NCBI GenBank assembly: GCA_964372185.1 | Contig: CAYJPZ010000087.1 | Coordinates: 1-16,231, forward strand | Reading direction: 5' to 3' | Length of the DNA stretch: 16,231 nt | DNA from: an uncultured candidatus Brocadiaceae bacterium | GTDB lineage: Bacteria; Planctomycetota; Brocadiia; Brocadiales; Brocadiaceae | Shown here: positions 1,505 to 15,375 of the stretch, in pieces | Layout: each line of letters begins with the position of its first letter | Numbering within the stretch: the first letter of the stretch is position 1 | The notes under the pieces: generated by a model | Seen by the model: only the letters and a program-made list of their open reading frames with translations | Told to the model about the DNA's origin: nothing | Database searches by the model: none | Program-made: the position numbers and the translations under genes

Positions 1505-1595
1505 GCATAACGGTTGGCTTCACCCGCCGCGCGGGTGCGGGAACCCGCCCTCGCTACGAGACCTCCTGAAAGCGGGTGGGGCCGCCGATTTGTGC
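1505..1595 (-). repeat. second attC-like imperfect palindrome, abutting the truncated intI
   Basis: GCATAACGGTTGGCTTCACCCGC (1505-1527) pairs with GCGGGTGGGGCCGCCGATTTGTGC (1572-1595) at about 18 of 23 positions, with bulges. It shares two motifs with the 757-847 site: C[TC]GCCGCGC just inside the left arm and GCCGATT(T)GT in the right arm. Its boxes are less canonical than those of the first site. Confidence 0.45.
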
Positions 1596-2180
1596 GTGCG
1601 GAGCGCGATCGAGTGCGCCGGGCATTTGAACGTGTCCCCAGCCTTCGGCCAGGTCTTTCTCATGGATCGCCTTGCCTTTCTTGAGACACGCCTGAAGCGG
1701 TGCCTTGAGCGATTCCGGAAGCATGGTGATCCGGTCTTTCGCTCCCTTACCGTCGCGAATGAGTATCTCGTTCCGCGCAAAGTCAATATCCTGAACCCGC
1801 AGGCGCAGGCATTCCATTGGGCGCAGCCCCGCGCCGTACATAAGCGAGGCCATCAGCCGCTTGTCGTCCGAAAGGTTCGACAATACGGCTTTTACTTCAT
1901 CGCGGGTCATAACCACGGGCAGGCGTGTTGGCTTTCGGGCACGGATGATGTTACTGAGATCGCCGACTTCGCGACCAATCACGTGGCGATAGAGGAACAG
2001 TAAGGCTGAAAGTGCTTCACGAAGACGGTCCAGTAGTTTCGGCTTGTGACCCGTCTTTGAGGTATCTGCCGGACGTTCGTTAACACTGTCCGGGCTTGTT
2101 TTTATGGAGCGAGTTTGTTGCACAGGATACCCTCCTCTGCTGGCAAAGTCGAAGATTAGAGGATAGAAAATTACTTGCAT
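1554..2180 (-). pseudogene. intI: integron integrase (IntI-type tyrosine recombinase) remnant
   Basis: The translation contains ALSALLFLYRHVIG...RLPVVMTRDEVKAVL...RLMASLMYGAGLRPMECLRLRVQDIDFARNEILIRDGKGAKDRITMLPESLKAPLQ...LAEGWGHVQMPGALDR.P.A. This matches IntI1-like proteins through box I and into the start of the IntI-specific insertion (ALERKYPNA region). The C-terminal catalytic half (HxxR...Y) is absent. About 60 aa expected between LLDRLRE and ALSALLFLY are also missing. Confidence 0.7.
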
Positions 2181-2337: not shown

Positions 2338-4371
2338 CTACTTCTTCTCCACCTCGTCGGCTGCTATCGCTTCCAGCTCTGCGTGGATATCTTCCCACTC
2401 TTTATAGAGGGTGTTTAGTTCTTGTGTGACGGACTGGTACTGCTTGTTGACTTCAACGGCTTTCTCCTTATTGCTGTAAAGGGTGGTATCCAGGAGGACG
2501 TTGTCCAGTTCCTTTTTTTCGGCTTCCAGTGAAACGGTTCTTTCCTCGATGTTTTGCGCCTCTTTTGTGAGTTTTCGCTTGCGGGCGTTTTGGTCTTTTT
2601 TTTGAAGGTAAAGTTGCTTTTGCGAGAGGGATTCGTCTGTCTTTGCCGCTGGTGATACGATGTTCGGGGTGGTATTATCCCTGACGGACCTGGGTGTACC
2701 CGGCGTCCGTACGCCGGCAGGCTGGCTTGCCGCGCCTTTGTTGCTTCTCGTTTCGAGAGACATGCTTGCCGTTTTCGCGTCGAGGAATTCCCTGAAGCCA
2801 CTCAGGTGAACGTGGAGCCGATTGTCTTTTAGTTCGAAAACCTTTGTTACCAGGCCGTCAAGAAAGTCCCTGTCGTGCGATACAATCAGCAGGCTTCCTG
2901 CATAGTCCAGCAAGGCGGCCTTTAAAATCTTTTTCGTGGCAATGTCGATGTGATTGGTCGGTTCGTCGAGGAGGAGGAAATTGGTCGGTTTTAAGAGTAT
3001 CTTGGCAAGTGAGAGGCGCGACTTCTCGCCGCCGCTCAGAACGCTAACGGCCTTGAAGACGTCGTCTCCGCTGAACAAAAATGCGCCCAGGATGTGCCTT
3101 ACCTGCGGGATCATGGAAAATGGCGCGACTGACTCTACTTCCTGCAGCACGGTGTTGTTGTTATTAAGTTTTTCCGCATGTTCCTGCGCAAAATAGTCAA
3201 AAAGGACGTTATGCCCCAATTTGAGGGTACCTGAGCAGGGTTGTTCCAAACCGGCCAGGATGCGTGATAAGGTGGATTTCCCGGACCCATTTTGTCCTAC
3301 AAGGGCAATCTTTTCTCCCCGTTCAATCGAGAAGCATACGTTCCGGAAGATGAATCTGCCGTCGTATTGATGGGCAACGTCTTTAACGTCCAGGACGGTT
3401 ACGCCGCTTTGCTTCGATTCGCGAAACCTGAATTTTACCTGGGATTCGTCATTTTCAGGGAGTTCCTCCTTCTCCATTTTTTCAAGCATGTGGATGCGGC
3501 TTTGCACCTGCGATGCCTTTGTGTTCTTCGCCCTGAACCGCTCAATAAAGCGCTCCACTTCTTTAATCTTTTTCTGCTGGTTGGTGTAACGCGCCGTCTG
3601 GAGTTCTTTCCGGTTCTCCTTTTCAATTTCATAAAAGGAATAGTTTCCACTGTATTCAGTGACATTCCCCCTTTCCAATTCCCATATCTTGGTGACGTTC
3701 CGGTCGAGAAATGCCCTGTCGTGGGATATGAGGATCAGCCCCCCTTTGAATTCCTTGAGGTACGACTCGAGCCAGAGGATGGAATCAATATCAAGGTGGT
3801 TTGTCGGTTCATCTAAAAGGAGTAGATTCGGTTCCTGAAGGAGCAGCCGGGAAAGGGCAACGCGCATCTGCCAGCCTCCGCTCAATTCGCCGATGGCTTT
3901 TGTAAAGTCGGAGTCCCTGAATCCCATGCCCTTTAGCACCTTGCTCGTCTCCGCATCGACTTTGGAGCCGTTGACAACGTCCAGTTGATGCTGCAGGTGG
4001 GCATAGCGGTCCAGGAACAACTGGTGTTCTTCTTCGTCCAGTGACGGGTCTTCAAGTCGGGCGTGAATGGTATCGATTTGGCATTTAAGGTTAATAATGT
4101 CTTCAAAAGCAGAACGGGCTTCTTCAAAAACCGTCTTGTTTTTAAAGACAAAGCCTTCTTGCGGGAGATAGCCGACGTTGGTATCTTTTGCGGAGATAAT
4201 ACTGCCGCTATTCGGCTCGATACCTTTGCAAAGGAGTTTAAAAAGGGTTGATTTACCCGCGCCATTCTTGCCGATGAGGCCAATCCGGTCGCTTCTTCGA
4301 ATGTGCAGGGAGACGTCGTCGAATATGACGTCGCTGCCAAACGACAAGCAAATACTATTCAGACGAATCAT
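2338..4371 (-). CDS. ABC-F family ATPase (Uup/YheS-like, two ABC domains plus C-terminal coiled-coil tail)
   Basis: 677 aa. First cassette: GKNGAGKST, LSGGWQMRVALSRLL, LLLLDEPTNHLD. Second cassette: GQNGSGKST, LSGGEKSRLSLAKIL, FLLLDEPTNHID. There are no TM segments. The ~140-aa C-terminal tail is low-complexity and Lys/Glu-rich coiled coil. Confidence 0.9.
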   Translation of the reverse strand: MIRLNSICLSFGSDVIFDDVSLHIRRSDRIGLIGKNGAGKSTLFKLLCKGIEPNSGSIISAKDTNVGYLPQEGFVFKNKTVFEEARSAFEDIINLKCQIDTIHARLEDPSLDEEEHQLFLDRYAHLQHQLDVVNGSKVDAETSKVLKGMGFRDSDFTKAIGELSGGWQMRVALSRLLLQEPNLLLLDEPTNHLDIDSILWLESYLKEFKGGLILISHDRAFLDRNVTKIWELERGNVTEYSGNYSFYEIEKENRKELQTARYTNQQKKIKEVERFIERFRAKNTKASQVQSRIHMLEKMEKEELPENDESQVKFRFRESKQSGVTVLDVKDVAHQYDGRFIFRNVCFSIERGEKIALVGQNGSGKSTLSRILAGLEQPCSGTLKLGHNVLFDYFAQEHAEKLNNNNTVLQEVESVAPFSMIPQVRHILGAFLFSGDDVFKAVSVLSGGEKSRLSLAKILLKPTNFLLLDEPTNHIDIATKKILKAALLDYAGSLLIVSHDRDFLDGLVTKVFELKDNRLHVHLSGFREFLDAKTASMSLETRSNKGAASQPAGVRTPGTPRSVRDNTTPNIVSPAAKTDESLSQKQLYLQKKDQNARKRKLTKEAQNIEERTVSLEAEKKELDNVLLDTTLYSNKEKAVEVNKQYQSVTQELNTLYKEWEDIHAELEAIAADEVEKK

Positions 4372-4522
4372 GTTGTTCTACCGTAGTCAGTCTCACAGCA
4401 TTCATTTCAAAACACACTTTACACAATTCAGAGGCACAAGCCACTTCTCCCTGGGGTTTGACACAATATAACCTAACGCGGCACAGCCGCAACCAAACTT
4501 CCTCCTCCACATACATACGGTG

Positions 4523-4759
4523 CTAGGGATTGTTTGACTGCCACTTCCGCGCTATTTTTATGAGTTCATCCTTCGACATTGCAACTGCTTTTCTGTTTTG
4601 TTCCTGTATTTTTTCAAAGATTTCTTCCCGATGCACCTTGACTTCCTTTGGCGCTACAATGCCGAGCTTAACTTGTTTATTCTGGCATTCAAGGATGGTA
4701 ATCTTTATTTCATTCCCAATAGTTATGCTTTCTCCCTGTTTTCTGGTCAATATCAGCAT
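4523..4759 (-). CDS. csrA: carbon storage regulator CsrA (RNA-binding translational regulator)
   Basis: 78 aa starting [51 protein letters not shown], the canonical CsrA fold sequence with a C-terminal extension. The SD is AAAGGAAGACC-ATG. It lies directly downstream of the fliW genes, as in FliW-type CsrA loci. Confidence 0.9.
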
Positions 4760-4930
4760 GGTCTTCCTTTAAAAAAACAACGATTCCGCCGCATTTAAGT
4801 AAGTCCTGAAACACAACCCCTCTGTCCCCATTTTCTAAAAGGAAGTATTAACGTTCTTTTTAAAAAATGAGGGTTCAGGGGGATGTTATCGGCCATTGCC
4901 TATACAACGCAAACTGTCACAATAAAGCGA

Positions 4931-5884
4931 TTACTTCTTAACGGACTTCTTAACAAATGGATGGTTTAGTGTATACTGTTTCCCTTCCAACACATATTGT
5001 TTTCCTACCCTGCTTTGCTGATTAATAAGGATCGGACCCTTCAAATTCACTGTGGCATTTTCCGGCTTATTGCCCAACGTAACGGTACAAAGTGTCTCCA
5101 CGCTTTTTTTGTCTTTTGCCCCTATCGCGGAAATATCTTGTATCTGTTGTGCCGGGTTGTAATCCGCAAAAAACGGCGTCGGGTTAACTATGGGGAACGT
5201 GACGTCCGGATTTTCCACAGAAACCAGCCATTCAAAAGGACGCCATTCTTCGATATTGAGGATGACAAACTCTCGTAACTCTTCAAATCCCATCAAACCG
5301 TCTTTAAAGGTGATAATGTTTTCTTTTTTAACGAGGAGTTCTCCCAGTTTGGAGCTGGATATCTTTACGCTGTCGCTCCCGCAACTGCTTTTTCCGCCGG
5401 ACGTTTTAACAAATGGATGGCTGAGCGAAAATACCCCTTCCAATACGTATTGTTTTCCTGTCTTGTTTTGCGTGTTGATAAGAATAGGCCCCTTCAGGTT
5501 CACCGTGGCGTTTTCCGGATTTACGCCTAAGGTTACGGTACAAAAGGTCTCAACGCCTTTCTTGTCTTTTGCCCCTATGGCAGAAAAATCTTCTATCTGT
5601 TGCATCGGGCTGTAGTCATTAAAAAACGGCGTCGGGTTGACTATGGGGAACGTAACGTCCGGATTTTCCACAGAAACCAGCCATTCAAAAGGATGCCATT
5701 CTTCGATGTTGAGGATGACAAACTCTCGTAAGTCTTCAAATCCCAATAGGCCGTCTTTAAAGGTGATAATGTTTTCTTTTTTAATGAGGACTTCACCTAA
5801 TTTAGGGGCTGATAGATTTGACCCTCCACTTCCACAACCTGCTTTTCCTTTTCCTGCCGGTTGACACGATCCCATTCCTGTCAT
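4931..5884 (-). CDS. fliW: tandem FliW-FliW fusion protein (two flagellar assembly factor FliW / CsrA-antagonist domains)
   Basis: 317 aa. Two near-identical halves, offset by 151 codons (453 nt), each read KLGE.L.KKENIITFKDGL.GFE.LREFVILNIEEW.PFEWLVSVENPDVTFPIVNPTPFF...ATVNLKGPILIN...GKQYVLEG...HPFVK. These are FliW-family hallmarks. The SD is AAAGAGGTGGATT-ATG. Confidence 0.85.
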   Translation of the reverse strand: MTGMGSCQPAGKGKAGCGSGGSNLSAPKLGEVLIKKENIITFKDGLLGFEDLREFVILNIEEWHPFEWLVSVENPDVTFPIVNPTPFFNDYSPMQQIEDFSAIGAKDKKGVETFCTVTLGVNPENATVNLKGPILINTQNKTGKQYVLEGVFSLSHPFVKTSGGKSSCGSDSVKISSSKLGELLVKKENIITFKDGLMGFEELREFVILNIEEWRPFEWLVSVENPDVTFPIVNPTPFFADYNPAQQIQDISAIGAKDKKSVETLCTVTLGNKPENATVNLKGPILINQQSRVGKQYVLEGKQYTLNHPFVKKSVKK

Positions 5885-6222
5885 AATCCACCTCTTTCTT
5901 TAAAAGGTTCAATGCCGCTGGATATAAATTACACGGGGCTAAGCGCACCAAGTGCAAACAATGAAAACACTCGGTATCGAACGATTGCTCTATTATTCCA
6001 TTCCGCGTTGATAACAGTTTACCTGGTATACCTTTTTTAAAAAAACGCAAAACAGTATATCGTTTTTCTCGTATATTTACAAACTTATTGTTATTGAGAA
6101 CGGTAATAATCTTTTCGACGCCGAAGGCCTTTCGTTACCCCATTCTTCTCAATAACGCGCTACCTGAAAATCCTTTTCCGAAACGCTGTTATACTCGCCG
6201 GTGTCCGCATGATATCAGTCGA

Positions 6223-6702
6223 CTACTTCTTAACAAGCGGGTGATTTAGGCTGTAATAGTCCTCCAGCAACACGAATTGCTTTCCTAATTTATTTTGCGT
6301 GTTAATAAGGATAGGCCCCTTGAGGTTTACCGTGGCATTTTCCGGCTTGTCGCCTAACGTGACGATGCAAAACGTTTCAATACATTTGGGGTCTTTTGTT
6401 TCTAATGCGGCAAGGTCTTCGATTTGCTGCATCGGCTGGTAATCCGTAAAAAAGGGTATTGGATTAATAACGGGGAAGGTAATTTCGGGGTTTTCCACGG
6501 AGACTAACCATTCAAAGGGGCGGCACTCTTCGATGTTAATAATGACAAACTCTTTTAAATTTTCAAATCCAAACAGCCCCTCTTTAAAAATAATAATATT
6601 TTCTTTATTAATGAATAAGTCGCCTAATTTTTGGGTTGATATATTCAGGCTGCTGCTTCCACAACCTTTTTCTTCCGGTTGACATGATCCCTTACCTGTC
6701 AT
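6223..6702 (-). CDS. fliW: FliW family protein (third, more divergent FliW paralog)
   Basis: 159 aa with the same architecture as each half of 4931-5884 (KLGDLFINKENIIIFKEGLFGFENLKEFVIINIEECRPFEWLVSVENPEITFPVINPIPFF...ATVNLKGPILINTQNKLGKQFVL). It has the same N-terminal MTGKGSCQP..GCGS extension. The SD is AAAGAGGTACACC-ATG. Confidence 0.85.
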   Translation of the reverse strand: MTGKGSCQPEEKGCGSSSLNISTQKLGDLFINKENIIIFKEGLFGFENLKEFVIINIEECRPFEWLVSVENPEITFPVINPIPFFTDYQPMQQIEDLAALETKDPKCIETFCIVTLGDKPENATVNLKGPILINTQNKLGKQFVLLEDYYSLNHPLVKK

Positions 6703-6903
6703 GGTGTACCTCTTTCTTTGAAAGGTTTGATACTGTCGGATAAAAATTACACGTGGGCAAAACGCACCCGACGCCGAATGTGGTGAGAATGGTAAGTTTT
6801 GAGCTTATGAACAGACCCTGTTTGTTCCTGCAACCCCTAAATCCGCTCAAACACAATTGTTTTGCTAAAAAATGTCATAGCAGTTAATGAGACAATAAGA
6901 TGT

Positions 6904-6930
6904 ATATCGGATGTTTCTTTCAAAAAGTTA
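6904..6930 (-). promoter_or_regulatory. candidate sigma-28 (FliA/SigD)-type promoter upstream of fliW paralog 3
   Basis: The minus strand reads TAAC-N15-TCCGATAT, against the SigD/FliA consensus TAAA-N15-GCCGATAT/AA (3/4 and 7/8 matches, exact spacing). It lies ~200 nt upstream of the 6702 start. Confidence 0.3.
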
Positions 6931-6953
6931 AATTGATGTTCTGTAATAAATCA

Positions 6954-7011
6954 GGCCTTTCGGCGCCTTTTTTATATTCACACGTAGGGACACGGCGCGC
7001 CGTGTCCCTAC
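6954..7011 (-). terminator. hairpin pair downstream of the M20 gene (perfect 28-nt palindrome plus small GC hairpin with U-rich tail)
   Basis: 6984-7011 is GTAGGGACACGGCGCGCCGTGTCCCTAC, a perfect 14+14 palindrome. On the minus strand, 6954-6969 reads AGGCGCCGAAAGGCCT followed by GATTTATTA. On the plus strand the same small hairpin is followed by TTTTTT. Confidence 0.4.
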
Positions 7012-7050
7012 TTTGAATTTCCTATACGTTTAAATTACCTCTAACCTGCA

Positions 7051-8232
7051 CTATGGACTGCACGCAATGTAAGCAAATAAAGCCGGTCCGTTGCACAGGA
7101 TATCCTCATCAAGAAGAAACCGCGGACTGTGCAAAGGATGCTGGGTGCCTTTCTCCAGGCATCCGGAACCTAAAAATATATATGCCCCCTTTATTTTTTC
7201 AAGGTAGTAGGAGAAGTCCTCCCCGCCCATTTTGGGATCGATCTTTTCAACTGCATTGCCGCCAAAAAGCTCAACAATTTTGTCCTGAATAAACTGCAAC
7301 TGAGGCTGAGGATTATTAAGGGGTGGATGACCCCTAAGATATTCAAATTGGTACGACGCATTATTGAGGGAGGTGATTCCTTTGATCGTGTCTTCAAGCA
7401 GGAGCGGCATCCGGTGGCGTAATTCCTTAGAAAGCGTCCTTACCGTACCCGTTATTTTTACCGTGTCGGGGATTACGTTAAAGGTTGTCCCCCCTGCAAT
7501 CTGGCATAACGACACGACGCAAGGAGATAAAGGGTTTATCCGCCGCGAGACGATGGTCTGTATCGCCAATATTACCTCAGCGGCAATAACGATGGGATCA
7601 ACACACAGATGTGGGGTGGAGGCATGGCCTCCTTTTCCTGTAATAGTAATAATGATGCGGTCCGTTGCCGCCATGGTTGGTCCGTGCCGCAATCCAAAAA
7701 CGCCTGATGCGATGCAGGGATCGATATGCATGCCGTAGATCTCGTCAACACCGCTCAAAACCCCTTCGTCAACCATCATTTTGGCGCCACCGGGGTGTTG
7801 TTCCTCACAGGGTTGGAAGATGAATTTCACCTGCCGTTTGAGCCTGCCTTGCATCATGGTCATGAGCTTTGCCGCGCCCAGCAGCATTGCCATGTTGGCG
7901 TCGTGGCCGCAGGCATGTGAAACACCCTCGTTCTGCGATTTAAACTCCAGGCAGTTTTCTTCCGTTATGGGCAATGCGTCCATGTCCGCCCGAAAGGCAA
8001 CCGTCTTTTTGGCGTTTGGAATGGGAAGCGCGCCGACGATGCCGGTTTTAGCGATATTTGTTTGCGCGCTAATGCCCATCCGTTGTAACTCTTCAGCAAT
8101 AACGCCCGACGTGCGGGTTTCAAGAAAACCCGTTTCCGGGTATTTGTGGAATTCTCTCCTCATTTGGACGACGTAATCATGGACGTCTTTGGCGCGAGCG
8201 AGTATTTCCTGAGCAAGTTCTTGATTCTGCAT
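7051..8232 (-). CDS. M20D family amidohydrolase (N-acyl-L-amino acid amidohydrolase / hippurate hydrolase-like)
   Basis: 393 aa with ...FHKYPETGFLETRTS...VAFRADMDALPI...SHACGHDANMAMLLGAAK...FIFQPCEEQHPGGAKMMV...ITGKGGHASTPH... These are the typical metal ligands and order of the M20D/AmhX/YxeP family. The SD is AGAGGAA. Confidence 0.9.
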   Translation of the reverse strand: MQNQELAQEILARAKDVHDYVVQMRREFHKYPETGFLETRTSGVIAEELQRMGISAQTNIAKTGIVGALPIPNAKKTVAFRADMDALPITEENCLEFKSQNEGVSHACGHDANMAMLLGAAKLMTMMQGRLKRQVKFIFQPCEEQHPGGAKMMVDEGVLSGVDEIYGMHIDPCIASGVFGLRHGPTMAATDRIIITITGKGGHASTPHLCVDPIVIAAEVILAIQTIVSRRINPLSPCVVSLCQIAGGTTFNVIPDTVKITGTVRTLSKELRHRMPLLLEDTIKGITSLNNASYQFEYLRGHPPLNNPQPQLQFIQDKIVELFGGNAVEKIDPKMGGEDFSYYLEKIKGAYIFLGSGCLEKGTQHPLHSPRFLLDEDILCNGPALFAYIACSP

Positions 8233-8910: not shown

Positions 8911-9636
8911 TTGTGGATACTTCAAGACCTTATCATCACTCGTTACCTCAAAAGAAAGACCCATTACTGCATCGGGTTAAATGACAAGATTGTCAGATTG
9001 GAATTAGGGGCTGATGAATACATACCAAAGCCCTTTGAGCCCCTGGAAGTGCTGGCGCGCGTAAAAACAGGCGAGCGTATTATAAAATTACAAAACACGC
9101 TTGAGAACAGCGCAAGATATTATGAAACGCTTGCGTTTACTGACGAGCTGACAAAACTTTATAACCGCAGGTTTTTCAATGAAGTTTTAAGGAAAGAATT
9201 TGCAATGGCAAAGAGGTATCAGCGCCCCCTTTCAATAATCCTGCTTGATATAGATCGTTTTAAACTATTTAATGATAAATACGGACATCCCACAGGAGAC
9301 GTTGTTTTACAAACAGTTGCCGCCGTTTTAAAAAAAACTGTAAGGGAGAGCGATATTGCAGCCAGGTACGGAGGCGAAGAGTTTTCTATCTTATTGATAA
9401 ATACACAAAAAGACCCTTCCGTTGAAATGGCGGAAAGGGTTAGAATAGCGGTAGAAGACACAAAAGCAGACACCGATCACGGCAGGCTTTCAGTTACCAT
9501 TAGCCTGGGGATAGGCATAAGGGAAAATACCGCAGCGGACGTGAATTCTCCTGATGAACTATTTGATCAGGCAGACGCGGCGCTCCTTATGGCAAAGCAA
9601 ACAGGCAGAAACAAGGTCTGCTGCAACACTCCATAG
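8911..9636 (+). CDS. GGDEF-domain diguanylate cyclase (retains only the last ~35 aa of a receiver domain)
   Basis: 241-aa ORF opening with TTG. It has a coiled-coil linker, then FTDELTKLYNRRFF...ILLDIDRFKLFNDKYGHPTGDVVL...RESDIAARYGGEEFSILL. The GGEEF active site (nt 9370-9384) is intact. An RxxD I-site (RESD) sits 5 residues upstream of it. Confidence 0.8.
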   Translation: MWILQDLIITRYLKRKTHYCIGLNDKIVRLELGADEYIPKPFEPLEVLARVKTGERIIKLQNTLENSARYYETLAFTDELTKLYNRRFFNEVLRKEFAMAKRYQRPLSIILLDIDRFKLFNDKYGHPTGDVVLQTVAAVLKKTVRESDIAARYGGEEFSILLINTQKDPSVEMAERVRIAVEDTKADTDHGRLSVTISLGIGIRENTAADVNSPDELFDQADAALLMAKQTGRNKVCCNTP

Positions 9637-11323: not shown

Positions 11324-11399
11324 GGGGACGTAGCTCAGCCGGGAGAGCGTCTCGTTCGCAATGAGAAGGTCAGGGGTTCGATTCCCCTCGTCTCCACCA
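11324..11399 (+). tRNA. tRNA-Ala (anticodon CGC), CCA encoded
   Basis: Hand-folded cloverleaf. The acceptor stem GGGGACG/CGTCTCC carries the G3:U70 alanine identity pair. The D stem is GCTC/GAGC. The anticodon stem is TCTCG/TGAGA with loop TTCGCAA (anticodon CGC). The variable loop is AGGTC. The T arm is AGGGG-TTCGATT-CCCCT. It ends with discriminator A and CCA. Confidence 0.95.
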
Positions 11400-11510: not shown

Positions 11511-11888
11511 ATGTATGTTGGCATTGATATTATTGAGATAAAACGCATAGAAAGATTGTTTTCTGCAAATGAAGGTTTTTTAAAGAAAATCTACACGGAA
11601 AATGAGGTCGCCTACTGCAACGGAAGAAAAAATAAATACCAGCACTTTGCCGCCCGCTTTGCCGCAAAAGAGGCCATGTTCAAGGCGCTGGGAACGGGTT
11701 GGAGGGGTACCATGAAGTGGACGGACATCGAGACGCTCAATGACGAAACGGGCAGGCCATATCTCAATTTGTACGGAAGCGTAAAAGAACTGGCGGACAA
11801 GAAAAAGATCCATTCTATCGCCGTGTCACTATCACACTGCCAGGATTATGCTATAGCAGAGGTGCTTTTGGTGGTAGGAATGGCGTAG
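11511..11888 (+). CDS. acpS: holo-[acyl-carrier-protein] synthase (4'-phosphopantetheinyl transferase, AcpS type)
   Basis: 125 aa: MYVGIDIIEIKRIERL...YCNGRKNKYQHFAARFAAKEAMFKALGTG...WTDIE...GRPYLNLYG...IHSIAVSLSHCQDYAIAEVLL. This is the canonical AcpS pattern and size. Confidence 0.9.
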   Translation: MYVGIDIIEIKRIERLFSANEGFLKKIYTENEVAYCNGRKNKYQHFAARFAAKEAMFKALGTGWRGTMKWTDIETLNDETGRPYLNLYGSVKELADKKKIHSIAVSLSHCQDYAIAEVLLVVGMA

Positions 11889-11973
11889 CCTCCGTTAAAC
11901 GCCAATTGGTCGCGTAACAACTGGCAGAGTACGATTGACATACTAATCGGAGTAAAATAGGGGGATTTGTGTA

Positions 11974-12205
11974 ATGGCACACACGGTAATTTTTGATACG
12001 CTGGCATATGCAAAAGAAACATAAGGAAGCCGGAGTTCCTGATGCGCAGGCAGAAGTGCATGCAGAGGCTATTGCAGAATTAATTGATGAACGTTTAGCA
12101 ACAAAACAGGCTTTGAAAGAACTGGAATTACGCCTGACCATTCGCCTGGGGGCTATGATGGCCGCCAGTATTGCAATTATAGCCGCGTTGGTTAAGTTGC
12201 TGTAG
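11974..12205 (+). pseudogene. DUF1640-like small tail-anchored coiled-coil protein, interrupted by a 1-nt frameshift
   Basis: The ATG at 11974 has a strong SD (GGGGGA, 8 nt) and gives MAHTVIFDTLAYAKET*, stopping at 12022. The rest of the family-typical sequence (KKHKEAGVPDAQAEVHAEAIAELIDERLATKQALKELELRLTIRLGAMMAASIAIIAALVKLL) is in the +1 frame (track ORF 11993-12205, TTG-opened). The switch falls in CAAAAGAAA (12011-12019). Confidence 0.6.
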
Positions 12206-12229
12206 AAGGAATGCAAGAGAGGAATATTC

Positions 12230-13711
12230 ATGAAAAAACTGGTGTTGATTAATCCTCACCCAATCGGAAACGTAGGGGAGGAAAACGTATCCGTATTAAA
12301 CCAAATGCCGGTAAACCTCGGCTATCTCAAGGTGTTAACCCCAAAAAACTGGGACGTCGATATCATTGATGAAACCCAGGAACACGCCGTAGATGAAGTT
12401 ACCGGCGACATTACCTTTGGCGGGGCTGACCTGGTGGGCGTCACCGCCGTCAGTTACCAGGCACAGCGGGCGTATCAGATTGCGGCTGCGTGCAGGAAGC
12501 GGGGCATACCCGTCATTATGGGTGGTATCCATGCCACCAGCTATCCGGAAGAGGCTGCAAAACACGTTGACTGCGTGGTAACCAGGGAGGCCGTTACTAC
12601 CTGGGAAAAGATTATCCGTGATTTTGAGAAGGGACAGCTCCAAAGGCGGTACGACGGTGTGCTGACACCCATGGAGCTTTATCACGGACTGCGCCCCGAC
12701 AGAAAATTTCTGCAAGACAAATACAAGTACCGCTATTCAGGGATTATTACCACTGCCGGATGTCCGTTTAGCTGTGAGTTTTGCTCCGTCCCCCAATTCC
12801 AGGGAAAGAAATACCGGGAAAGGCCGATAGAGGACGTGCTGGATGAATTTGAGTCCATCAAGGGGCAATTCCGCGGCCTGATCCTGACGGATGAAAACTT
12901 CTACGGCCACAGCAAGAAGTCGAACGAGCGGGTACTGGAGCTTTTCAAAGGGATGGTGGATAGGGGTATTTACCAAAACTGGTTTGGTTTTACCTCGCTC
13001 AATATCTATAAAGACGACGAGACCCTTGAGTATATGAAGAAGAGCGGATGCGTCGGAGTGCTTATCGGGATCGAATCCATCAACGAGGAAGCCCTGAAGA
13101 CGATGAACAAGAACGTAAACCTGCGCATATCCATAGAAAACTACTTCGAGGCCATTGCCAACATCCGCAAGCACGGCCTGGCAGTATGGGGAACGATGGT
13201 CTTCGGGAACGACGCCGACACCCCGGACACCTTTAAACAGGTCGCCGATTTTGTCCTTGATTCCCACGTAGATATTATGACCTGCGGCATCCTGTGCCCA
13301 TTCATTAATACGCCGCTGTATCACCGTTTGAACAACGATGGCAGGCTTTTCAGGACGAATTTCCCGGCGGATTGGAAGTATTATACGTCACACCACCTCA
13401 CCTATATCCTCAAAAACATGTCTCTCCAGGAACTTATCGACGGCTTCCAGTATCTGTACGACAAGATTTACGACACCGGCGTGCTGCGGAAGAGGTTTCA
13501 AAATGCCAAAGAGGTACTTGCGGACAACATGAATGCCGCCATGTTCGCGTTCCGGGTAAACCTGGACTGGCAAAGCGTCTACCAGCACTTGATACAGAAT
13601 TTGAAAGACTTACAGACAACGGGGTTTTATGAAGAGATGCTGAAAAGACATAACCAGGCAAAGAAACAGGGGAAGATATCGGAATTAGCATCGGTTGGGA
13701 TTACGCCGTAG
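12230..13711 (+). CDS. B12-binding domain-containing radical SAM protein (class B rSAM)
   Basis: 493 aa with SD GAGGA. The N-terminal region is cobalamin-binding-like (GADLVGVTAVSYQAQRAYQIAAACRKRGIPVIMGGIHAT). The motif TTAGCPFSCEFCSV is CxxxCxxC at residues 178/182/185 (nt 12761-12784). A TIM-barrel region follows (LILTDENF...VGVLIGIESINEE...WGTMVFG), then a long C-terminal helical extension. Confidence 0.9.
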   Translation: MKKLVLINPHPIGNVGEENVSVLNQMPVNLGYLKVLTPKNWDVDIIDETQEHAVDEVTGDITFGGADLVGVTAVSYQAQRAYQIAAACRKRGIPVIMGGIHATSYPEEAAKHVDCVVTREAVTTWEKIIRDFEKGQLQRRYDGVLTPMELYHGLRPDRKFLQDKYKYRYSGIITTAGCPFSCEFCSVPQFQGKKYRERPIEDVLDEFESIKGQFRGLILTDENFYGHSKKSNERVLELFKGMVDRGIYQNWFGFTSLNIYKDDETLEYMKKSGCVGVLIGIESINEEALKTMNKNVNLRISIENYFEAIANIRKHGLAVWGTMVFGNDADTPDTFKQVADFVLDSHVDIMTCGILCPFINTPLYHRLNNDGRLFRTNFPADWKYYTSHHLTYILKNMSLQELIDGFQYLYDKIYDTGVLRKRFQNAKEVLADNMNAAMFAFRVNLDWQSVYQHLIQNLKDLQTTGFYEEMLKRHNQAKKQGKISELASVGITP

Positions 13712-13828
13712 GATAGCATACCGTTTCAGACCATTAATAATACGTTCGAGAATATTAATTTAGGATTCATGTTACAAACGTAAATCCACCGTAGGTGGTA
13801 ACAATCAAATCCTTAGGGGAGCATTATC

Positions 13829-14128
13829 ATGGCAGTGATAACGGTACCCAGGGTGCTGCGGGAAAAACGAGGGGAAGACGGCGCTGATTCTTTGGTAGAA
13901 TTAATGAACAAAACAGACGTCGTGGTAAAAGAGGACGTGCTGGTATTTGTAGAGGAAAAGTTTGAAAGGCGACGGGCTGAAGAATTAGCAAAAGTTAACG
14001 AAGTAATTGCCCAAACGAATGTAAAAATTGCTGAAACAAAATCAGAAATAGTTTGCTGGATGTTTATATTTTGGGCAGGCCAAATAGGGGTGATGATCGG
14101 TATCTTATTCGCCTTTTTTAGAAAATAA
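13829..14128 (+). CDS. small coiled-coil protein with C-terminal transmembrane anchor, function unknown
   Basis: 99 aa with a good SD (GGGGAG, 7 nt). It reads VPRVLREKRGEDGADSLVELMNK...FERRRAEELAKVNEVIAQTNVKIAETKSEIVCWMFIFWAGQIGVMIGILFAFFRK. The charged helical region followed by a WMFIFW..Q hydrophobic tail resembles a widespread family of small tail-anchored proteins. Confidence 0.65.
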   Translation: MAVITVPRVLREKRGEDGADSLVELMNKTDVVVKEDVLVFVEEKFERRRAEELAKVNEVIAQTNVKIAETKSEIVCWMFIFWAGQIGVMIGILFAFFRK

Positions 14129-14163
14129 GTTATTATTGGAGGTTGTTCAAAGAACATACGGCT

Positions 14164-15375
14164 ATGCCAAAGGTAGTCATCACCGGTTTAGGATTAGTTA
14201 CACCCGTCGGTACCGGCATAAAAAAAAGCTGGGAGTCGTTCCTCCGGGGCAGGAGCGGCGCAAACGAGATGAAGTCCTTTGACACCTCGAAATACAAGGT
14301 ACACCGCTCCTGTGAGGTAAAAGACTTTGCCCTGGACGTCGAACTGGACAACCAGATAAAAGAAAACACCATCCACAAATACGTCTATTACGCCGCACGT
14401 GAAGCACTCCTGGAAAGCGGCCTGCCGGACGAAAAGCATTGTGACCGTGAACGGTTCGGCGTCGCCATTGGAACACTGGCCGCAGAACTAACCCCTTTTG
14501 AGCGATTGCTGAGAGTAGACACCTCGAAAAAAGACAACGGTTTTGACAAAATCGTTGCAGCCGTCTATCCGCCCAACTCCATCACCAACGTCCTTGCCCG
14601 ATATTTCGGCTTTGAAGGTCCGACGATGATCTCGCTGAATGCCTGCTCTTCCGGCAACCACGCTATCGCCTGGGCGTATGACCGCCTGATGGAAGACAAG
14701 GTTGACGTGGTAATGGTCGGCGGAGGAGATATGATCCCTCAAACGGAGTTCACCCACTTCCACAACCTCAAGTCCCTTGCGCCGGAACGGTGCCAGCCCT
14801 TCGACAAAAATCGTCAGGGTCTCATGATTGGCGAGGGCGCCGGCATCCTCATCATGGAACGCTATGAATTTGCGAAAAAACGCGGTGCGAAGATTATTGC
14901 CGAAATGGCCGGATACGGGCTAAGCTGCGATGGATTCCACATGACCGCGCCCCATCCGGAAGGTAATGGCGCCGTGAAATGCATGAGCGATGCGCTGAAG
15001 ATGGCAGGGCTTTCGTCCGCCGATATCGACTACATCAATGCGCATGGCACAGGCACCCCGCACAACGACAAATCGGAGACCATCGCCATAAAGCGGGTAT
15101 TCCAGGACCGCGCTTACAAGATACCGTGCAGTTCCACAAAATCAATGATTGGCCATCTTATGGGCGCCGCCAGCGCCGTTGAATCGGTCATCTGCTGCCT
15201 GGCATTGCGGCACGGGATGCTGCCCCCAACGATTAACTACGAAACACCCGATCCCGAATGCGATCTCGACTATATACCGAATACCGCACGAGAATGGAAG
15301 GTAAGGCACGTCCTAAACAACTCCTTCGCATTCGGCGGGAATAATGCAACGACGATATTTAGCCGGGTAGATTAA
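14164..15375 (+). CDS. fabF: beta-ketoacyl-[ACP] synthase II-like condensing enzyme (FabF/KAS family, Cys-His-His)
   Basis: MPKVVITGLGLVTPVG...ISLNACSSGNHAI (active Cys)...DGFHMTAPHP (His)...YINAHGTGTPHND (His)...STKSMIGHLMGAAS...NSFAFGGNNAT. The track ORF opens at a TTG at 14143. I prefer the ATG at 14164 because it gives the family-typical N-terminus, but the start is uncertain. Confidence 0.9.
   Translation: MPKVVITGLGLVTPVGTGIKKSWESFLRGRSGANEMKSFDTSKYKVHRSCEVKDFALDVELDNQIKENTIHKYVYYAAREALLESGLPDEKHCDRERFGVAIGTLAAELTPFERLLRVDTSKKDNGFDKIVAAVYPPNSITNVLARYFGFEGPTMISLNACSSGNHAIAWAYDRLMEDKVDVVMVGGGDMIPQTEFTHFHNLKSLAPERCQPFDKNRQGLMIGEGAGILIMERYEFAKKRGAKIIAEMAGYGLSCDGFHMTAPHPEGNGAVKCMSDALKMAGLSSADIDYINAHGTGTPHNDKSETIAIKRVFQDRAYKIPCSSTKSMIGHLMGAASAVESVICCLALRHGMLPPTINYETPDPECDLDYIPNTAREWKVRHVLNNSFAFGGNNATTIFSRVD

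Follow-up and report, generated by a model that had tools for sequence, protein, structure and literature searches.

CsrA is among the most widespread post-transcriptional regulators of bacteria. Outside the gamma-proteobacteria, FliW is to our knowledge the one protein antagonist of CsrA that is well understood, and the mechanistic studies known to us all assume a monomeric FliW bound 2:2 to the CsrA dimer. Structurally, the complex is a CsrA2-FliW2 heterotetramer in which the FliW subunits lie on opposite sides of the CsrA dimer, and the CsrA proteins that dock FliW are defined by I/V51, N55, and a C-terminal extension beyond approximately residue 61 (PMC7829508). Roles have been described for CsrA residues R44, I51, and N55 and for its C-terminal helix (PMC7829508, PMC11905337). 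Here we analyze a stretch of 16,231 nucleotides (nt) (positions 1 to 16,231 of contig CAYJPZ010000087.1, assembly GCA_964372185.1), the whole of which is referred to below as the window, in which csrA is preceded by three FliW modules, two of them fused in a single protein of 317 amino acids (aa). The order on the minus strand is a free-standing fliW (6223-6702), the fused fliW (4931-5884), and csrA (4523-4759). The host is an uncultured member of the Brocadiaceae (anammox bacteria), and members of the protein cluster carry the NCBI names "Candidatus Brocadiaceae bacterium" and "Planctomycetota bacterium". The locus is a conserved, previously undescribed form of the known FliW-CsrA switch and not a new kind of system.

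Composition and conservation of the FliW-FliW fusion

A first-pass annotation, made from the sequence alone, had identified FliW and CsrA here along with a covalent FliW-FliW fusion, and Pfam and NCBIfam scores above the respective cut-offs bear this out. The free-standing FliW (module S) matches PF02623 at 3.7e-36 (124 bits), and the two halves of the fused protein, scanned separately, both score as FliW at 4e-33 (114 bits, module A) and 6e-36 (123 bits, module B), far over the Pfam cut-off of 25 bits. Against NF009793 (cut-off 130 bits), S scores 132 bits and the fusion 250 bits. CsrA matches PF02599 at 7e-26 (90 bits, cut-off 27) and the NCBIfam equivalogs NF002469 (93 bits, cut-off 73) and TIGR00202 (91 bits, cut-off 70). 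The motifs GL.GFE, PF.W, NL.(G/A)P...N, and GKQ are invariant in S, A, B, and canonical Brocadiaceae FliW, and also across 42 family members; GL.GFE, NLKGPILIN, and GKQ are identical between all modules. S retains "EEC.PFEW" and "EDYYSLN", like the operon-resident FliW of Brocadiaceae. In the fused modules, "EEW" replaces "EEC" and the C-terminal motif is altered relative to the canonical protein. Of the modules, S is the most canonical-like.

The CsrA sequence aligns without gaps to 5dmb_D over residues 2-69, with I51 and N55 falling on I52 and N56 of that chain. It possesses R44 (RNA binding), I51 and N55 (FliW docking), and a helix after N55 at its C-terminus, features that place the CsrA of the cassette in the FliW-regulated subclass; FliW binding itself is predicted. 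Cassette CsrA proteins end at 78 aa, and the operon-resident CsrAs of Brocadiaceae (L018, L033, L042) add 5-30 residues rich in K and E. An E54Q change, specific to the cassette, lies beside the docking residue N55.

Foldseek searches matched FliW structures alone (5DMB_A, 5DMD, and 2AJ7; E ~1e-11, target TM 0.81-0.93). Given an alignment of 42 sequences, AlphaFold2 modeled the 317-aa protein with a mean predicted local distance difference test score (pLDDT) of 80 and two confident domains (pLDDT 85-96). Residues 1-26 and 162-184 have pLDDT below 50 and are predicted to be disordered, and a predicted template-modeling score (pTM) of 0.50 indicates no fixed packing between the domains. The model shows the predicted protein as two flexibly tethered FliW domains, resembling beads on a string.

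Alignment to Geobacillus FliW (5DMB_A) begins at KISSSKLGELLV, which corresponds to residue 3 of that structure, and module B aligns to its residues 3-143. The KLG[DE]L (KLGEL) part of the N-terminal extension is accordingly the first beta-strand (beta1) of canonical FliW, so that the lineage-specific extension comes to only about 20 aa (MTGMGSCQP..GK..GCGSGG). The first-pass description of an extension that canonical FliW lacks is therefore correct for these ~20 residues but not for the half that forms canonical beta1, and a short N-terminal tail, devoid of Cys, is present on canonical Brocadiaceae FliW as well. The inter-domain linker aligns to the distal part of the extension found on the free genes, in agreement with its description as the retained distal half. 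The spacer proper, TSGGKSSCGSDSV, measures ~13 aa by homology, and the AlphaFold2 model has a low-confidence stretch of 23 aa. At each junction in each ortholog, "...HPFVK(K)" is joined to "P(A/G)GKGK..C(C)GS..", with exactly "MTGMGSCQ" missing. This supports the proposed in-frame loss of a stop codon, a leader, and a start codon; with each fusion the stop codon and the leader disappeared, and the gene downstream lost its first eight codons. Every module is preceded by a Cys-bearing "GSC...C(C)GS" segment, and "GSC", with the first Cys, is present in 12 of the 12 N-termini read; the L007 triple, P0048, and the free S of L008 and L011 lack the second Cys and the CGSGG segment.

At the nucleotide level, a 300-nt core is repeated at a spacing of 453 nt, the period first noted between the halves, with 85% identity between the copies and 71% identity to the free gene. 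Tandem Repeats Finder called no repeat on the locus, the copies being too diverged. The halves had been described as differing at only a handful of nucleotides, and the duplication hence as recent. The first statement holds for the stretch cited, where 5192-5330 and 5645-5783 agree at 131 of 139 nt, but not beyond it: in the window, A and B are 93-97% identical in the 5' third of the core and 73-86% identical in the rest, and L007 has no such tract. The 5' third of module A thus carries a tract shared with module B, and this near-identical stretch is a local gene-conversion tract.

Recency of the duplication is contradicted by the history of the modules. A tree built from all proteins cut into modules contains four clades, S (free), X (the first module of triples), A, and B, and the modules group by position rather than by genome. 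Module A is orthologous to the middle module of triples, and module B to the last module of every double or triple, across lineages. Synonymous divergence (dS) between A and B is 0.54 in the window, 1.29 in L007, and 0.15 in L011. Ratios of nonsynonymous to synonymous divergence (dN/dS) between orthologs are 0.03-0.09 for S, 0.12 for module A, 0.12 for module B, and 0.07 for csrA, with dS of 0.3-1.0 over all ortholog pairs, and by these estimates all of the modules and csrA are under purifying selection. The positional clustering, dS, and dN/dS together show that the fusion is old and maintained by selection.

The exact 317-aa protein is found on at least nine contigs from separate ENA assemblies, and orthologs at 89%, 79%, and 78% identity share its two-module length (316-321 aa). 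Together these exclude mis-assembly of the repeat. Three-module chains of 457-469 aa (P0001, P0045, P0054) occur in sister strains within the same 90% identity cluster, with triples located at L007:1167-2540 and L031:1733-3145; counting the free fliW, these loci encode four modules per csrA. The cassette common to all loci consists of a free fliW, a fused fliW with two or three modules, csrA of 78 aa, and a gene for an ABC-F protein of 677 aa. One double, P0050, takes its N-terminus from module X and the rest from module A of a P0054-like triple. This bears the signature of homologous recombination between the neighboring modules X and A, which would account for the difference between two- and three-module forms.

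Relocation of csrA from a late flagellar operon

The closest outgroup FliW proteins are those of Ca. Brocadia sapporoensis and related Brocadia spp., which are encoded in the order flgE...flgK-flgL-fliW-csrA-TPR. A scan of GTDB species representatives with the FliW alignment yielded 23 Brocadiaceae loci. The cassette is present in two of these (L030, JACVXV B4_bin.26, a double; L031, CAYHFB, a triple), and the other 21 possess a single fliW-csrA pair in flgK-flgL-fliW-csrA-TPR, including the complete genome of Ca. Brocadia pituitae (AP021856). A scan of JGI metagenomes for FlgL found 28 Brocadiaceae flgL loci, 24 of which reach past fliW, and csrA and TPR follow in 23 of the 24. Identity to the closest canonical FliW (L032, L033) is 66-69% for S and 54-60% for the fused modules, and 73-75% for CsrA. 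These comparisons show an ancestral state in which one fliW and one csrA end the late flagellar operon flgK-flgL-fliW-csrA-TPR, and a state in this clade in which csrA has been relocated beside an ABC-F gene, behind a free fliW and a two- or three-module FliW chain. No genome prefix occurs twice among the 23 loci, so a genome seems to have either the cassette or the canonical pair, with the caveat that metagenome-assembled genomes (MAGs) are incomplete.

The ABC-F gene is the constant downstream neighbor of csrA in all six cassette lineages. Its product scores 466 bits against NF000355 (cut-off 380) and possesses two ABC domains and the inter-domain linker; in the NCBIfam scan it fell below the cut-offs for EttA, Uup, and the resistance subfamilies and reached only the generic "ribosomal protection-like ABC-F". 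The csrA-abcF spacer is 151 nt in the window, 21 nt in L008, and 8 nt in L011, and the short spacers suggest that a translational repressor and a ribosome-associated ATPase are transcribed together.

No flagellar genes were found in the 16-kb window, the 21-kb locus L001, or the five orthologous loci, nor within at least 10 kb in the six cassette loci. The first-pass observation that flagellar genes are absent nearby is thus locally true, but in the nearest relatives fliW-csrA sits in a flagellar operon. Genomes of Ca. Brocadia carry complete flagellar and chemotaxis sets, which Ca. Jettenia lacks (PMC8851195), and a full flagellar set is present in a sediment anammox genome (PMC7768721). Because the pair is flagellar in these relatives and Brocadia-type genomes encode flagella (PMC8851195), the non-flagellin partners hinted at in the first-pass annotation are not indicated.

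A possible trace of the relocation is found in one flagellar operon. L080:5001-7907 (JGI Ga0315281_10000482) reads flgI-N-K-L-fliW-TPR, with an intact fliW (155 aa) and without csrA. The place taken by csrA in 44 other Brocadiaceae flagellar operons that reach past fliW is occupied in L080 by ~225 nt of non-coding sequence, and no csrA remnant was found in this spacer. L080 and the cassette contig L009 come from the same JGI sample, Ga0315281. GC content at third codon positions (GC3) is 0.45 for L080 and 0.44 for its fliW (fliW0), compared with 0.46-0.47 for cassette genes, 0.51-0.58 for cassette loci, and at most 0.40 for other flagellar loci. Tetranucleotide correlation was set aside as a measure of this linkage in favor of GC3, being confounded by shared flagellar gene content. 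The leader of the L080 fliW also has the cassette-leader motif AACCUUUUAAA..AGAGG, which canonical leaders do not possess. On balance, we lean toward L080 and the cassette belonging together, in which case L080 may be the emptied ancestral site. It fits, without proving, a picture in which csrA and the duplicated fliW copies left the operon and one fliW stayed. Other searches for such a connection were negative: the two cassette-bearing species representatives yielded no second fliW locus in the scan, although the L080 FliW0 matches the scan patterns; NCBI accession ranges gave no overlap linking a flagellar operon to a cassette MAG; and the FlgL clusters P0334, P0330, P0379, and P0412 have contexts that are canonical or too short, all from other samples.

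Proposed function and alternative readings

Combining these data, we consider it moderately probable that the cassette is a relocated and amplified FliW-CsrA partner-switch module that acts as a multivalent CsrA antagonist, with flagellin likely still its titrant. CsrA would repress translation as a dimer that offers FliW one docking site on each of two opposite faces, and each FliW module would dock at one site and free CsrA from its mRNA targets. A single chain of modules could then be a multivalent, high-avidity antagonist that chelates one dimer or cross-links several. Release of CsrA would require several modules to be titrated together, which would make a sharper switch than monomeric FliW provides. 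S probably keeps the ancestral 1:1 role, and the titrating partner would most likely still be flagellin. The clamp on both sites of one CsrA dimer that was first suggested is plausible as one of several possible geometries, given the short spacer and the near absence of a linker in other tandem FliW proteins.

Several points weigh against such an antagonist. Its multivalency is deduced from domain content, and with FliW sites on opposite faces and a short spacer, steric constraints may prevent a chain from chelating one dimer at all. Linkers in the other natural tandem proteins range from ~0 to ~35 aa, and those of P0139 and the P0148 family are almost absent. With equal expression, the three to four modules encoded for each csrA gene would keep CsrA permanently antagonized unless the partner is abundant. 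The link between L080 and the cassette is one of sample co-occurrence and composition only, and the searches described above did not connect any cassette-bearing genome with flagellin or another flagellar gene.

The lack of flagellar genes near the cassette in six lineages, and of any flagellar locus found in the two cassette-bearing species representatives, would also be expected if the system had been decoupled from the flagellum. Some anammox genera, such as Jettenia, have no flagella (PMC8851195). On this reading the modules would be titrated by a non-flagellin partner or would receive a signal through their Cys/Gly-rich extensions, and CsrA would serve as a general post-transcriptional regulator, for example of a switch between aggregated and planktonic states. 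The tight linkage of csrA to a translation-type ABC-F gene, the divergence of the fused modules ("EEW" for "EEC" and the altered C-terminal motif), and the Cys-bearing segments ahead of every module are consistent with this. However, all family-invariant FliW residues are kept in every module, all other tandem FliWs examined sit in flagellar contexts, the csrA-less operon L080 co-occurs with the cassette, the second Cys and CGSGG are dispensable in several orthologs, and MAG incompleteness could account for the missing flagellar loci; we therefore regard decoupling as possible but unlikely. We strongly doubt a more far-reaching version, in which multi-FliW chains are a recurrent cooperative avidity clamp or cross-linker that in the anammox clade is uncoupled from the flagellum, with the Cys segments as a redox or metal input and CsrA as a global regulator responding to a non-flagellin signal.

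A division of labor among the modules is decidedly unlikely in our estimation. In such an arrangement S alone, or some single module, would antagonize CsrA, and the fused modules would act mainly as a flagellin chaperone or sink with several flagellin-binding sites, perhaps with each module serving its own flagellin paralog. In its favor, the clades S, X, A, and B are distinct and each is conserved in its own right, and S is closest to the canonical form and under the strongest constraint (dN/dS 0.03-0.09 versus 0.12); canonical FliW is a flagellin-binding assembly factor, and the two FliW paralogs retained by H. pylori play unequal parts (PMC11905337). Yet nothing in the sequences separates competence for CsrA binding from that for flagellin binding, and GL.GFE, NLKGPILIN, and GKQ are the same throughout the modules. 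We put at practically nil the chance that assembly or gene calling created the fusion as an artefact, or that neutral tandem duplication left a decaying array of pseudogenes. Repeats of ~450 nt can collapse or become chimeric in short-read assemblies, and copy number varies between close strains. Nevertheless, the same ORF is present in at least nine separate assemblies, frame and junction are kept in orthologs at dS up to ~1 with dN/dS ~0.1, the repeats are just 85% identical and easily assembled, and the difference between two and three modules, as seen in P0050 and P0054, fits homologous recombination of X with A. On these grounds an artefact is effectively ruled out.

FliW chains of two and three domains have become fixed in several lineages independently, and here purifying selection maintains them over a long divergence. 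Such natural chains offer a test of how valency and avidity tune the switch, with regard to its threshold, its cooperativity, and higher-order assemblies. The locus also marks a clade of anammox bacteria, organisms that cannot be grown in pure culture, with CsrA regulation physically split from the flagellar operon, a separation that may bear on whether cells live motile or aggregated, a matter of importance in reactors. The claim is a modest one, as both proteins belong to known families and the function is deduced.

Locus features and comparison with known systems

Table 1. Feature coordinates for the cassette and the adjoining ABC-F gene in the window (SD, Shine-Dalgarno sequence).
Feature	Position	Strand	Basis and remarks
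ABC-F ATPase, 677 aa	2338-4371	minus	NF000355; synteny
csrA, 78 aa	4523-4759	minus	Pfam and NCBIfam; predicted FliW-regulated type
fliW-csrA intergenic leader	4760-4930	minus	weak hairpin and U-run at 4777-4792, followed by csrA SD AAGGAAG
Fused fliW ORF, 317 aa, FliW-FliW	4931-5884	minus	two PF02623 stretches
Module B of fused fliW, aa 174-317 and stop codon	4931-5365	minus	PF02623 alone; 5DMB_A alignment; AlphaFold2
Inter-domain spacer TSGGKSSCGSDSV, aa 161-173	5366-5404	minus	alignments; formerly distal N-terminal extension of a once-separate gene
Module A of fused fliW, aa 22-160	5405-5821	minus	PF02623 alone; AlphaFold2 confident domain
Lineage-specific N-terminal extension MTGMGSCQPAGKGKAGCGSGG	5822-5884	minus	alignments; predicted disordered (AlphaFold2)
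Leader and putative promoter of fused gene	5885-5975	minus	conserved CGTGTAATTTATATCC box; anti-SD/SD stem ACCUUU...AGAGGU
Free-standing fliW (module S), 159 aa	6223-6702	minus	PF02623; NF009793
Leader and putative promoter of free fliW	6703-6790	minus	paralogous to the leader at 5885-5975

Each fliW gene is preceded by a copy of a duplicated 92-nt leader segment (80% identical between the copies, conserved in six lineages) with a conserved "CGTGTAATTT(A/T)TATCC" box and an anti-SD/SD stem, ACCUUU/AGAGGU. In the stem alignment 92% of cells pair and one change is compensatory (C-G to A-U, L008), but 56 of 500 shuffles were equal to it, so that covariation support is weak. The hairpin and U-run between fliW and csrA are kept in the window, L007, and L008 and deleted in L011, where the spacer is 17 nt; the terminator-like call at this leader was not above chance for the region, and a promoter and terminator scan of 4300-7200 gave counts equal to the shuffled expectation. 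A hairpin resembling a CsrA site at the fliW start codons (UGACA-loop, GGA-UGUCA) was rejected, as L007_T, L008_S, and L008_T do not keep its stem intact, and L007_S and L030_S have lost the GGA. Upstream of the cassette, the interval from an M20 amidohydrolase gene to the free fliW contains a perfect 12-bp GC-rich palindromic hairpin at 6984-7011 (GTAGGGACACGG CGCG CCGTGTCCCTAC), which probably serves as a terminator or insulator between the cassette and the upstream gene. An Rfam scan of the window returned tRNA only, and a tRNA-Ala (CGC) is located at 11324-11399 on the plus strand.

Downstream of abcF, a truncated integron-type integrase at 1554-2180 (minus strand; 208 aa, covering positions 65-203 of 315 in TIGR02249 and scoring below the cut-off) lies partly within a peak of GC content (0.60 at 1501-2000). 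Next come a hypothetical gene and one with an Mrr-type restriction endonuclease domain (225-743). L001 continues the same region with DUF1828/1829, DUF2326, and HerA-SIR2 genes, and L011 differs there in having HNH, antitoxin, and integrase-fragment genes; the region looks like a variable defense island. An origin of the cassette in a mobile element, considered for the adjacent integrase fragment, was rejected, since csrA-abcF synteny is conserved and the upstream M20 gene is present in three lineages. On the plus strand, a GGDEF diguanylate cyclase ORF at 8911-9636 starts (TTG) inside the end of the receiver-domain alignment (PleD positions 243-454), and its receiver part appears to be missing or truncated. 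A cluster at 11511-15375 (plus strand) encodes a holo-ACP synthase, a B12-binding radical SAM enzyme at least 90% identical to a Brocadia sinica/B. sapporoensis protein, and a FabF-like ketoacyl synthase; clusters of radical SAM and fab genes have been proposed for the synthesis of anammox ladderane lipids.

An exhaustive phmmer search of 1.84 billion representatives returned 3527 FliW hits, and the top 150 were inspected. Among these, eleven other proteins of 260-437 aa align over both halves or in two stretches, and their sequences contain two FliW modules. Three are encoded directly 5' of csrA: L015:8001-8981 in a flgM-N-K-L context, L016:1151-2029 with motB, and L017:8001-8867 in flgM-N-K-L on a Firmicute-like contig. 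In P0134, P0136, P0149, and P0183 the two halves resemble one another more than they resemble other lineages, which points to several independent origins of tandem FliW. The architecture is thus recurrent in several unrelated lineages, and our literature search found no paper describing tandem FliW, or FliW in anammox bacteria or Planctomycetes. Like the window protein, the unannotated tandem proteins (P0134/L015, P0136/L016, P0139/L017, P0149, P0183, and the P0148/P0153/P0160/P0268 family) have two FliW domains per chain, for which public annotation gives merely "flagellar assembly factor FliW". They are at most 37% identical to the window protein and represent independent duplications, and the three with readable context are flagellar. 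Unlike the cassette, they lack an additional free fliW and Cys-rich segments, and none has a three-module form.

A comparison with the Hag-FliW-CsrA switch of Bacillus subtilis, Geobacillus thermodenitrificans (5DMB), Campylobacter jejuni, and Helicobacter pylori shows the same two protein families with csrA right after fliW, the same CsrA C-terminal extension with I/V51 and N55, and a FliW fold equivalent to 5DMB_A (TM 0.87); the ancestral position of the family's fliW-csrA behind flgK-flgL is also that of Bacillus. In contrast to the one FliW per csrA of that switch, the cassette has three to four, two or three of them fused. Also unlike that switch, the cassette carries a Cys/Gly/Lys-rich disordered segment before each module and a conserved leader for each fliW, and its pair lies outside the flagellar operon beside an ABC-F gene. 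H. pylori FliW1 and FliW2 (PMC11905337) likewise provide more than one FliW for one CsrA, unequally conserved and separately transcribed, but these paralogs are unlinked, monomeric, and 39.5% identical, whereas the cassette copies are adjacent, 65-85% identical, partly fused, and strain-variable in number. The nearest relatives are the canonical Brocadiaceae operons of Ca. Brocadia pituitae (AP021856) and B. sapporoensis, whose FliW and CsrA are 54-69% and 65-76% identical to those of the cassette, and which differ from it in having a single FliW of 152-155 aa, a CsrA of 83-110 aa with an extra C-terminal tail, and a flagellar setting.

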